A stretch of 32,000 nucleotides of DNA from Singulisphaera sp. GP187 (GTDB taxonomy: Bacteria; Planctomycetota; Planctomycetia; Isosphaerales; Isosphaeraceae): NCBI RefSeq assembly GCF_900129635.1, contig NZ_FSRB01000002.1, positions 244,727-276,726 of the forward strand. The letters run 5' to 3'. The notes beneath the pieces were generated by a model, which was not told the DNA's origin, ran no database searches, and worked only from the letters and a program-made list of their open reading frames with translations. This document shows, piece by piece, positions 8,663-10,247 of the stretch; positions within the stretch are counted from its first letter, which is position 1, and the number at the start of each line of letters is the position of its first letter. The position numbers were made by a program, and so were the translations under genes.

Positions 8663-9850
8663 TTACTGAGTGGCTCCCGGGCTTTGCAAACCCTTGATCG
8701 TCAAACACGCCCAAGTTGCGTCGGCGATTTCGGTCCTGCCCCAGCACCAGGCCTGGACGAACGCCCCTCCGGCCGCCACGAGTGCGATGCCGCAGCCCGC
8801 GGACAGGAATTGGACAGCGCCGGTCAAGTCCCAAGCCGCCACGGCACCGAACCCAAGGACCGAGCCAAGAGCGACCAACGCGATCAGCAAGTTGAGCACG
8901 ATGGCCTTGGGCGGCGACTTCCGTGCCCAACACGCTCCCAACAGGGAATCTCGCAACTTGAAGTACAAAAGAGCGCTGGCGAATTGCCAAGGTGGAACGA
9001 CCACCAATAGCGCGAACGTAAGCCAGAGTGTTTTCATTCCGTGGGGTTGCCATCCATCAAGCGAGGCGACACCGGCGACCAACAGACTGCACACGATGGC
9101 GATGAGACAAAATGTTTGAGCCGCCAGTCGCAAGGAAAGTCGTGCGGCGGATTCGGGCGGCTTCCACCCGAACCTGCGTTCCAGATAGCAAGCGATTCGC
9201 TCGCTTGGCGGAAGAGTGGCTTCAAGTTCGCGGCCGAGTTCGGCAGAGTCTCCGAATCTCCGTGCGGCTTCGTTCATGGCGGTCACGCAGTCGTCTTCGC
9301 GGCTCAGCTCCTCCTCGACAGTCGATGCCAGATGAGCGAGAAGTTCCTCGCGGATTGTTCGCTTCCGCGACATGCTCGCTCGAATCGAGCGGACAGCGCT
9401 CTCAACAATCTTGTATTTCGATGCCATGACGTTCCTCACTTCCCGGCTCACCAAGTCCGGCTGGAGTCCTGCGTCTAAAAGGATCAGCGCCGCGACGCCA
9501 TCACGGTCATGAAGCAAACCGAAGAACAGGTGGTCGACGTCGGCAACGAGATCCAGGTTCGACGCGTCGCCGACGGCGTACTCGACGACCTGCTTGGCGC
9601 GTGGTGTCAACGATCGTTCGCCTGTGGAAATGGCGACCGGGTCGCGACCGACGCGATTCTCTACCTCCAGGCGAACCATCGCGAGGTCGATGCCGTGTGA
9701 CTTGAGGATTTTGGCGCCGACGCTGCTAGCGTCGTTGATCAACCCCAACAGAATGTGCTCTGTGCCGACGTGTTGATGCCCGAATCCCCGCGCTTCCTCG
9801 TCGGCCAACTTCATGACAGTTCGCGCCCGAGGCGTGAAGTTTTCAAACAT
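8663..9850 (-). CDS. membrane protein: ClpC-type N-domain (two Clp R repeats) + DUF1700/HAAS-like helical module + ~5 TM helices
   Basis: The N-terminus [56 protein letters not shown]... follows the ClpC N-domain pattern. A second, degenerate repeat reads [13 protein letters not shown]...[76 protein letters not shown] matches the 'permease prefix domain 1'/DUF1700 pattern. Hydrophobic helices run to the C-terminus. No AAA+ motifs. Confidence 0.85.
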   Translation of the reverse strand: [395 protein letters not shown]

Positions 9851-9893
9851 GCTCGATTCTCCCGATTCGAGATCGCGATCAATGCAATCCGAC

Positions 9894-10247
9894 TCAGTTC
9901 GTGAGTGCCTGCGCCCCCAGAATTCCTCCGAGGGTATTCACAAACGTTTTCCATTCTTCGCGACATTGGCGCAGCTTCTGTTGACCCTTCGCCGTGAGGT
10001 GATAAATGCGTCGACGAGCGCCACGCCTTGCATGGGGCTGATTCTCCCACACGGCCTTAACTTGCCCTGCGGCTTCAAGCCGGTAGAGCGCGGGATAAAG
10101 TGACCCTTCCTTGAGCAGGAGAAGACCACAACCGGCCTCTTCCAATCGCCGAAGGATTTCCAACCCGTGCGCTTCGCCGCGTTCCAGCGTCGCAAGAATC
10201 AGGGCTTCAAGATGGCCCCTGAGCTTATCCCCGTTGATTGCTTCCAT
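9894..10247 (-). CDS. PadR-family transcriptional regulator
   Basis: LRGHLEALILATLERGEAHGLEILRRLEE...LKEGSLYPALYRLEAAGQVKAVWE...RRIYHLTAKG is the canonical PadR wHTH. It ends 43 nt upstream of the Clp-N/HAAS gene. Confidence 0.92.
   Translation of the reverse strand: MEAINGDKLRGHLEALILATLERGEAHGLEILRRLEEAGCGLLLLKEGSLYPALYRLEAAGQVKAVWENQPHARRGARRRIYHLTAKGQQKLRQCREEWKTFVNTLGGILGAQALTN

Follow-up and report, generated by a model that had tools for sequence, protein, structure and literature searches.

The locus described here raises the question of what a ClpC-type N-domain does at the head of a membrane protein whose gene lies next to that of a PadR-family regulator. The window, i.e. the whole 32,000-nt stretch of DNA that was analysed, is taken from contig NZ_FSRB01000002.1 (positions 244,727 to 276,726) of Singulisphaera sp. 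GP187, and it carries a two-gene unit at 8663–10247 on its minus strand, in which a PadR gene is followed by the gene for this membrane partner. Between the N-domain (Clp_N) and the transmembrane (TM) helices of the partner lies a module resembling HAAS, the helix-turn-helix (HTH)-associated alpha-helical signalling domain. We consider it moderately probable that the two genes form a HAAS-PadR dyad which represses its own operon, that Clp_N provides the cytoplasmic input of the membrane-anchored partner, and that a ligand of this domain brings about derepression. The family to which the partner belongs probably links protein-quality-control signals to transcription.

The two genes are made up of the following features.

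9894–10247, minus strand: PadR-family winged-helix repressor, 117 aa (open reading frame (ORF); Pfam PadR, PF03551, 69.6 bits against a cutoff of 27)
9851–9893, minus strand: intergenic spacer of 43 nt with a Shine-Dalgarno-like GGGAG ~8 nt 5' of the partner ATG (sequence inspection)
8663–9850, minus strand: partner protein, 395 aa (ORF)
9416–9850, minus strand: ClpC-type N-domain, aa 1–145, with GTEH in repeat 1 and DVDH in repeat 2 (Pfam, phmmer, AlphaFold2 (AF2), Foldseek)
9215–9415, minus strand: pre-HAAS motif (IVESAVRS in the window, VERAVRPV in the family) and three-helix HAAS/perm_prefix_1 module, aa 146–212 (perm_prefix_1, PF22564)
9140–9214, minus strand: juxtamembrane helix with a conserved FGW(R/K)(A/P)PES motif, aa 213–237 (P232 and E233 invariant; AF2)
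8747–9139, minus strand: four-TM anchor with very short periplasmic loops and cytoplasmic termini, aa 238–368 (hydropathy scan, AF2 helices)
8663–8746, minus strand: cytoplasmic C-terminal tail with a G-x-x-E-I-x-D-x-x-W-A motif, and stop codon (G371, D377 and W380 invariant)

Pfam Clp_N (PF02861) matched the partner in two stretches at 75.5 bits against a cutoff of 20.7, and a phmmer search of the PDB returned the N-terminal domain (NTD) of M. tuberculosis ClpC1 at E=1.5e-31. An AF2 model of the partner, for which 30 homologues were aligned, had a pLDDT of 88.9 and a pTM of 0.80, and its N-domain (143 residues) was superimposed by Foldseek on crystal structures of the ClpC1 and ClpC NTD with TMt values of 0.89–0.93 and a root-mean-square deviation (rmsd) of 1.4–1.6 Å at 43% identity. 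Compared with M. tuberculosis ClpC1 (42–43% identity, rmsd ~1.5 Å), the double four-helix repeat is retained with the first GTEH and TPRA intact, whereas the second GTEH is lost and the linker, AAA+ module, M-domain and ClpP loop that follow the NTD in ClpC are all absent. In fact, no AAA+ family was matched in Pfam and NCBIfam scans of the partner, where the HAAS module and four TM helices come after the N-domain. The partner is not a ClpC unfoldase. The first-pass annotation of this DNA had described a PadR gene paired with a membrane protein that bears a full ClpC-like N-domain and no AAA+ module, and this description was confirmed on each point. It had also called the second repeat degenerate, which is true of the signature (DVDH in the window and xPEH in the family in place of GTEH) but not of the repeat as a whole, as the mean column identity of repeat 2 (0.62) is no lower than that of repeat 1 (0.57).

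These column values, as well as all residue counts out of 30 given below, refer to a family alignment of 30 full-length members of the Clp_N-HAAS-4TM protein. Mean column identity was highest in the pre-HAAS/HAAS region (0.73–0.76), in keeping with the high conservation of PadR, and lowest in the TM helices (0.43–0.45). The latter were located by hydropathy scan at approximately 240–264, 275–297, 315–338 and 345–368, and AF2 placed helices on both sides of the juxtamembrane motif, at 215–227 and from 235 onward. The loops facing outside are very short and those facing inside are positively charged; therefore both termini and all conserved soluble parts of the protein are cytoplasmic.

The helical module had been taken in the first pass for a DUF1700-type domain, described as the HAAS partner of PadR regulators. 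This is borne out by Ravi et al. (mSystems 2024, PMC11237479), who define HAAS as a domain of three helices with a GxP kink that overlaps DUF1700, DUF1129 and DUF1048. It always adjoins a standalone PadR-like winged HTH and is usually N-terminal to multi-TM or intracellular sensor modules; the dyad was proposed as an alternative to two-component systems, with the coupling put forward as a hypothesis (PMC11237479). Neither Clp nor planctomycetes are named in that paper. In the present family, NCBIfam perm_prefix_1 (NF038403) matched 30 of 30 members, with a best E of 6.8e-10, and Pfam HAAS (PF22564) matched 19 of 27 isolated modules, weakly, as the sole recurrent family among them. The window copy (residues 161–209) scored 29.7 bits with perm_prefix_1 against a cutoff of 30; its module was not matched by PF22564, nor was the full window partner by Pfam DUF1700 or HAAS. 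The assignment as HAAS is hence supported by profile matches at the level of the family and borderline for the window copy. Helices were modelled by AF2 at 160–184, 188–199 and 202–211. A profile of the HAAS sub-alignment found nothing significant among PDB sequences and did not recover 2O3L, and a Foldseek search of the PDB with the AF2 model of a paralogue lacking Clp_N gave no match at E<=0.001, i.e. no structural confirmation of the HAAS fold.

In order to place the dyad, relatives of the partner were collected. A word-indexed search returned about 35 full-length relatives of 32–46% identity, and an exhaustive profile search returned at least 47 full-length single-stretch representatives at 50% clustering, along with fragments, among the best 150 matches. 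The only other named member is from Lacipirellulaceae, and members are often mis-named "ClpC" in the sources. A public sequence identical to the partner exists and is annotated only as "Clp N-terminal domain-containing protein"; its 90% cluster includes AGA28337.1 of Singulisphaera acidiphila DSM 18658 ("Clp amino terminal domain-containing protein"), with 19 differences over 395 positions. A scan of genome contigs with the family alignment yielded no full-length members, the matches being saturated by genuine Planctomycetota ClpC N-domains. The first-pass annotation had considered that the architecture might prove common and already characterised. It is not rare, yet the family, which is sizeable and planctomycete-centred, is entirely uncharacterised.

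Gene linkage was judged at eight family loci for which DNA or gene calls were available. In 8 of 8 the PadR gene (114–137 aa) lies directly 5' of the partner gene on the same strand, while the flanking genes are unrelated from locus to locus. Judged by identity among homologous dyads, PadR (61–91%) is much better conserved than the membrane partner (35–83%). The window PadR scored 88.3 with TIGR03433, a model of an acidobacterial paralogue, under its cutoff of 101.8. Homology at the DNA level between the window and the closest relative contig (L087) is confined to 8512–10351, with 84% identity over 1854 nt and unrelated flanks, and this block corresponds approximately to the promoter and the two dyad genes. 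Its GC content is 0.57–0.59 as opposed to 0.65–0.69 nearby, and GC content at third codon positions (GC3) is 0.70 as opposed to 0.83–0.92. The dyad behaves in this respect as a discrete unit. No flanking repeats or tRNA genes were found at the block by tRNA scan and a repeat search for mobile-element boundaries, and according to PADLOC the dyad proteins belong to no known defence system.

The origin of the architecture was apparent from proteins that lack Clp_N. A search with residues 143–395 also recovered proteins of ~250 aa (P0142–P0145 and P0148) that are 36–38% identical over the core running from VERAVRPV through HAAS and the four TM helices to GPxEIRxxEW, and that start exactly at the VERAVRPV motif, without the 145-aa Clp_N. 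The C-terminal tail motif is also kept in them. For P0144 (252 aa, locus L088) the PadR gene overlaps the start by 4 nt, its product shares 60% identity with the PadR of the window, and the two promoters are laid out alike. As the HAAS-4TM core exists without Clp_N and with its own PadR, Clp_N was grafted onto a pre-existing planctomycete PadR/HAAS-4TM dyad, which agrees with the graft suggested in the first pass; from these comparisons the Clp_N-less proteins appear to represent the ancestral state. A further protein, P0066 (locus L090, 3651–5320), has the domain order HAAS-Clp_N-Cupin_2. Its HAAS domain spans residues 19–81 and scores 33.8 bits, above the Pfam cutoff, both GTEH motifs of its Clp_N are intact, it has no TM helices, and it is encoded with an overlapping PadR of a different clade. 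PadR adjacency thus extends to the Clp_N-less paralogue and HAAS-Clp_N-cupin loci, and on the evidence of domain order and PadR clade Clp_N is judged to have been recruited to HAAS-PadR dyads at least twice, independently. Of the comparative arguments drawn from sequence, this double recruitment is the strongest for Clp_N as an input domain. Three candidate architectures were rejected, i.e. P0044 (a PadR-Clp_N fusion), P0005 (a Clp_N-less copy of 220 aa) and P0146, which are not real and derive from frameshifted nanopore assemblies. The idea that VERAVRPV docks into Clp_N as a pseudo-ligand specific to this domain was also discarded, as the Clp_N-less paralogues keep the motif.

Upstream of the PadR gene, the promoter region was compared across nine dyad promoters, and the operator motif was searched for in 87 loci. 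The elements in the window are as follows.

10277–10282, minus strand: -35-like hexamer TTGAAT (TTGAC in most homologues), which aligns across the nine dyad promoters
10254–10259, minus strand: -10-like hexamer TAGGAT, 6 nt 5' of the PadR ATG (TAnGAT 6–7 nt before the start in 7 of 9 promoters)
10255–10271, no strand assigned: putative operator of PadR next to the ATG, TCCTAG-GCTGT-CTAGGA, which is a perfect palindrome of 17 bp and overlaps both the spacer and the -10 element
Candidate PadR operator DNA: TCCTAGGCTGTCTAGGA

The layout common to all dyad promoters is TTGAC, ~17 nt, TA(G/T)GAT, 6–7 nt, ATG, and the spacer between the two hexamers in the window is 17 nt. The core CTATTCCTAGnCTGTCTA sits between the hexamers and overlaps the -10 element. 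The palindrome is the sole match in the 32-kb window, where 0.1 are expected by chance; AG-n-CTGTCTA is invariant across the nine promoters, and the motif TAGNCTGTCTA is confined to PadR promoters among the 87 loci. The palindrome is a good candidate for the PadR operator, and its position over the promoter suggests that the operon is autorepressed. Downstream of an in-frame stop no possible start codon precedes 10247, and 6 nt separate this codon from the end of the -10-like hexamer; a leaderless or near-leaderless operon mRNA is therefore probable. No conserved Shine-Dalgarno sequence precedes the PadR start in the window (10245–10282) or in L081–L088, and the Clp_N-less paralogue has the same short distance from -10 to ATG and the same leaderless-type promoter layout.

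In Listeria, the PadR regulators LltR and LstR are established autorepressors. The LltR (Lmo0599) operon, the example of such a dyad that has been studied by experiment, encodes the DUF1700 membrane protein Lmo0600 and is derepressed 100–150-fold in the mutant (PMC6624303). The dyad in the window resembles this system and the HAAS-PadR dyads in general (PMC11237479) in that a short standalone PadR gene lies directly 5' of a gene for a HAAS/DUF1700/perm_prefix_1 membrane protein and in the apparent autorepression of the operon. It differs in that HAAS, usually N-terminal, lies behind a ClpC-type N-domain, in that the PspC, LiaF, Toastrack, FtsX and FtsW modules are missing and a minimal four-TM anchor is found instead, and in phylum, here Planctomycetota. 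The logic and linkage are accordingly known from HAAS-PadR dyads, while the sensor domain, domain order and phylum are different. No published link of Clp_N with PadR or HAAS was found in the literature searched.

The ligand pockets of Clp_N were then evaluated. The ClpC NTD has two phospho-arginine (pArg) sites, pArg1 with T7 and T105/E106 and pArg2 with E32, and a hydrophobic groove in which unfolded substrate and cyclic peptides are held chiefly through contacts with F2, F80 and K85 (PMC12583610; PMC13345244). From the pseudo-symmetry of the domain we infer that T81 is also part of pArg2, an assignment that is our own and absent from these papers. All 30 members of the family share G29-T30-E31-H32 and T82-P83-R84 without exception, and the pArg2-type pocket of the partner is formed by T30/E31/T82 (T31/E32 in B. 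subtilis ClpC, with T81 by pseudo-symmetry). The pArg1 equivalents have decayed. T6 is kept in 18/30, position 105 is P in 16/30 and T in 4/30, and position 106 is E in 20/30 and D in the window. A second GTEH is present in none of the 30 members, whereas both GTEH motifs were found in 80 of 80 genuine ClpC N-domains, a mostly planctomycete reference set retrieved by profile scan of genome contigs. As one pocket is invariant, its twin has decayed and ClpC keeps both, selection acts on one pocket specifically. Of the ClpC pArg contacts, whose conservation the first pass had proposed to check, only the pArg2-type residues are kept. In the groove the contacts for cyclomarin and rufomycin are not conserved, F2 being kept in 8/30 and the F80 equivalent (position 81) being L in 29/30. 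K85, which is crucial in ClpC for the resting state and for cyclic-peptide binding, has a variable equivalent here (position 86), with K in 7/30 and R in 11/30.

The asymmetry of the pockets bears on the possibility that Clp_N has no ligand and serves as a structural or oligomerisation appendage, and that the TM/HAAS core senses a membrane or envelope signal, as it presumably does in the paralogues. That the HAAS-4TM core, PadR and promoter layout all exist without Clp_N is in line with such an arrangement, as is the finding that HAAS dyads are mostly tied to envelope-stress modules (PMC11237479), and in actinobacterial ClpC2 the Clp_N pocket doubles as a dimerisation socket by taking an acidic residue of the C-terminal helix of the neighbouring subunit, for which pArg competes (PMC13345244). 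An appendage would however not be expected to keep one pocket invariant across members of 32–46% identity while the pseudo-symmetric twin decayed, nor to be recruited independently into a soluble HAAS dyad. In addition, the TM helices show the lowest conservation in the protein and are joined by minimal loops on the periplasmic side, which speaks against a specific ligand site in the membrane or periplasm. We therefore regard a purely structural role as quite unlikely.

ClpC2 is the closest functional comparison for the sensor reading. The actinobacterial protein (Rv2667 family) is a Clp_N autorepressor that is released by pArg, cyclomarin or rufomycin and that also acts as a sponge (PMC10030653, PMC13345244). 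Both it and the partner are homologues of the ClpC NTD without AAA+ that are tied to transcriptional autoregulation, putatively so for the partner, and both systems have an operator (a putative one in the window) overlapping the promoter, one retained pArg pocket and a Clp_N protein as the main visible product. ClpC2 is however a soluble single polypeptide with its own DNA-binding N-terminal domain, whereas the window encodes a separate PadR and a Clp_N that is tethered via HAAS and four TM helices. Moreover, ClpC2 retains the pArg1-type pocket (T99/T100 and T197, which correspond to T6 and T105) and conserves the cyclomarin contacts, whereas the present family retains the pArg2-type pocket (T30/E31/T82) and does not conserve those contacts. 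By analogy, the system would be a split, membrane-anchored functional counterpart of ClpC2 and not a member of the ClpC2 family. The notion from the first pass that a Clp_N sensor is wired to a PadR switch finds indirect support in this precedent, in the second, HAAS-Clp_N-cupin dyad, and in the single invariant pArg-type pocket.

The same precedent brings in an effector or decoy function, in which the Clp_N-HAAS-TM protein would be chiefly what the operon serves to produce, a membrane-tethered sponge for ligands of the ClpC N-domain that protects or buffers ClpC, as ClpC2 does when over-expressed. ClpC2 is both sensor and sponge (PMC10030653, PMC13345244), the effectors of the Listeria PadR operons are the co-encoded membrane proteins (PMC6624303), and the only visible operator target in the window is the operon itself. 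Singulisphaera is a soil and peat organism and so probably lives beside antibiotic producers. The candidate ligands would be natural products that target ClpC, pArg-marked proteins or adaptors. For cyclomarin and rufomycin as ClpC2-like targets, the decoy idea of the first pass is weakened by the loss of their contact residues described above. A decoy would further be expected to mimic the NTD of the host ClpC, in which both GTEH motifs are kept, while the family has lost one, and neither the membrane tether nor the highly conserved HAAS module is needed for a sponge. On this evidence a sponge function is unlikely, although it is compatible with sensing. Because ClpC2 performs both roles, the sensor and sponge readings, by analogy, are not mutually exclusive.

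Another explanation is that Clp_N is a docking handle that binds ClpC (e.g. its M-domain) or an adaptor, so that the partner or the PadR bound to it is delivered to ClpCP or ClpXP upon a signal and PadR is released. Regulated proteolysis of membrane anti-regulators is a common bacterial design. To our knowledge, however, there is no case in which an isolated Clp_N recruits an unfoldase in trans. In resting ClpC the NTD pockets do touch M-domains, and both of them are occupied by MecA when it binds (PMC12583610), which lends the explanation some plausibility. Linked Clp, adaptor or protease genes were found neither in any of ten loci nor in the window, and the Clp_N-less paralogues pair with the same PadR type without such a handle. 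Delivery to a protease is for these reasons very unlikely.

In the favoured sensor reading, a PadR dimer would bind the 17-bp palindrome over its own promoter and repress the bicistronic operon. The partner would reside in the inner membrane by its four TM helices, with HAAS as the transducer that contacts PadR and sets its freedom for DNA, and the ClpC-type N-domain, gained at the N-terminus of an older HAAS-4TM partner, would serve as the cytoplasmic input. In the least certain step, Clp_N would bind a proteostasis-related ligand via the T30/E31/T82 pocket, either a pArg-type mark or an acidic or arginine-containing client or adaptor peptide, and the hydrophobic groove may also bind unfolded polypeptide. 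Binding would alter the HAAS-PadR contact and derepress the operon, which would increase the amount of Clp_N protein tethered to the membrane and possibly also that of regulon members encoded elsewhere. A narrower proposal is that Clp_N is a portable proteostasis sensor and that the family is a membrane receptor for pArg or an equivalent mark, signalling through HAAS to PadR in Planctomycetia. We advance this as a tentative and, on the whole, doubtful proposal.

Several observations weigh against the sensor reading or its pArg version. The HAAS module begins at approximately residue 146–160, after Clp_N, which is the reverse of the usual order of HAAS followed by sensor (PMC11237479); the Clp_N-less paralogues keep the usual N-terminal position. 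As the HAAS-4TM core exists with PadR and without Clp_N in these paralogues, Clp_N may be accessory. In the window copy S202 replaces the proline of the GxP kink, which brings the score of this copy to just below that required by perm_prefix_1. G200 is invariant and P202 is present in at least 90% of members, S. acidiphila included, so that the window has G200-D-S202 (codon 202, 9245–9247) as opposed to GDP in the family. S202 is not read as inactivation, because S, A or V at this position recurs sporadically among relatives. A single operator copy is visible, and its only visible target is the dyad's own operon. What the sequences show is the domain anatomy, the topology, the gene linkage, the conservation of the operator, the graft and the asymmetry of the pockets; operator binding by PadR, its contact with HAAS, the ligand and the direction of regulation are inferred from these. 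The pocket could bind a ligand other than pArg, or it could be an intramolecular or PadR contact or a helix socket, and ClpC of lineages without a known arginine kinase (mycobacteria, plastids) also keeps GTEH.

The genomic context of arginine phosphorylation points in the same direction. In anammox planctomycetes (Kuenenia, Scalindua and Jettenia; L038–L042, ~2440–3990, 5' of clpC) a Firmicute-like mcsA-mcsB-clpC operon is present, in which mcsA has a UVR motif and mcsB scores 235 bits with Pfam ATP-gua_Ptrans. McsA-McsB was found beside clpC only in anammox and not in the other planctomycete clpC loci examined. The best 120 matches of a search for McsB homologues were all from Brocadiia and are uninformative on Singulisphaera. 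For this lineage neither McsB nor MecA was demonstrated. No Clp, McsB or proteostasis genes were found in the window neighbourhood of the dyad.

HAAS-PadR dyads are widespread as computational predictions, none of them with a known input ligand. The ligands of the Clp_N family (pArg, unfolded polypeptide and cyclic peptides) and their pockets are known at atomic detail, which makes the dyad hypothesis testable in vitro. Together with ClpC2, the two independent recruitments of Clp_N to HAAS-PadR dyads suggest that Clp N-domains serve repeatedly as stand-alone sensors by which protein quality control is coupled to transcription. The question that follows is which ligand the single conserved pArg2-type pocket reads in Planctomycetia. 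Should the partner be a pArg receptor, a HAAS-PadR system would for the first time have a defined ligand, and pArg signalling would no longer be confined to Firmicutes and Actinobacteria.

Clp_N was also encountered in other settings. Fusions to diverse partner modules were observed (P0048, P0031, P0036, P0043/P0045, P0077, P0079 and P0062/P0071), the modules being a type II secretion system (T2SS)-type ATPase, a Uma2 endonuclease with TM helices, DinB, glyoxalase, adenylate cyclase, REC-LuxR and dihydroneopterin aldolase. Clp_N is thus promiscuous in these phyla, and the diversity of its fusion partners suggests a domain that is widely put to use for binding or sensing. Long tandem arrays of Clp N-domains without AAA+ occur in P0269, P0270, P0318, P0009 and others, with 11 matched stretches in 1762 aa, 9 in 1375 aa and 4–5 full domains in 678 aa.

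The remaining observations concern the surroundings of the dyad. A 51-aa ORF on the minus strand (8496–8651) with a signal-peptide-like N-terminus (MSAIRVMGILSLCALVTVESIGQA...) lies 11 nt past the partner stop and is not conserved in the other loci. Its homologue in L087 extends into what, recognised by eye, is presumably a DUF3471-like secreted protein, and the window ORF, which lies where the homology block ends, resembles a 5' remnant left by truncation. Directly 5' of the PadR promoter is a 173-aa ORF (10350–10871, minus strand; GC3 0.70), for which no Pfam, NCBIfam or PADLOC match was obtained and which the closest relative locus lacks; this ORF may be an orphan gene or no gene at all. 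Neighbours within the window include an IclR regulator, an MR/MLE enzyme, an amidohydrolase, a GMC oxidoreductase and a PS decarboxylase. At 25092–26174 on the plus strand a 360-aa protein with a zf-HC2 anti-sigma-type zinc finger is encoded, which is unrelated to the dyad. A DUF1559 (SBP_bac_10)/N_methyl gene is also present in the window, consistent with its source in the Isosphaeraceae of the Planctomycetota.

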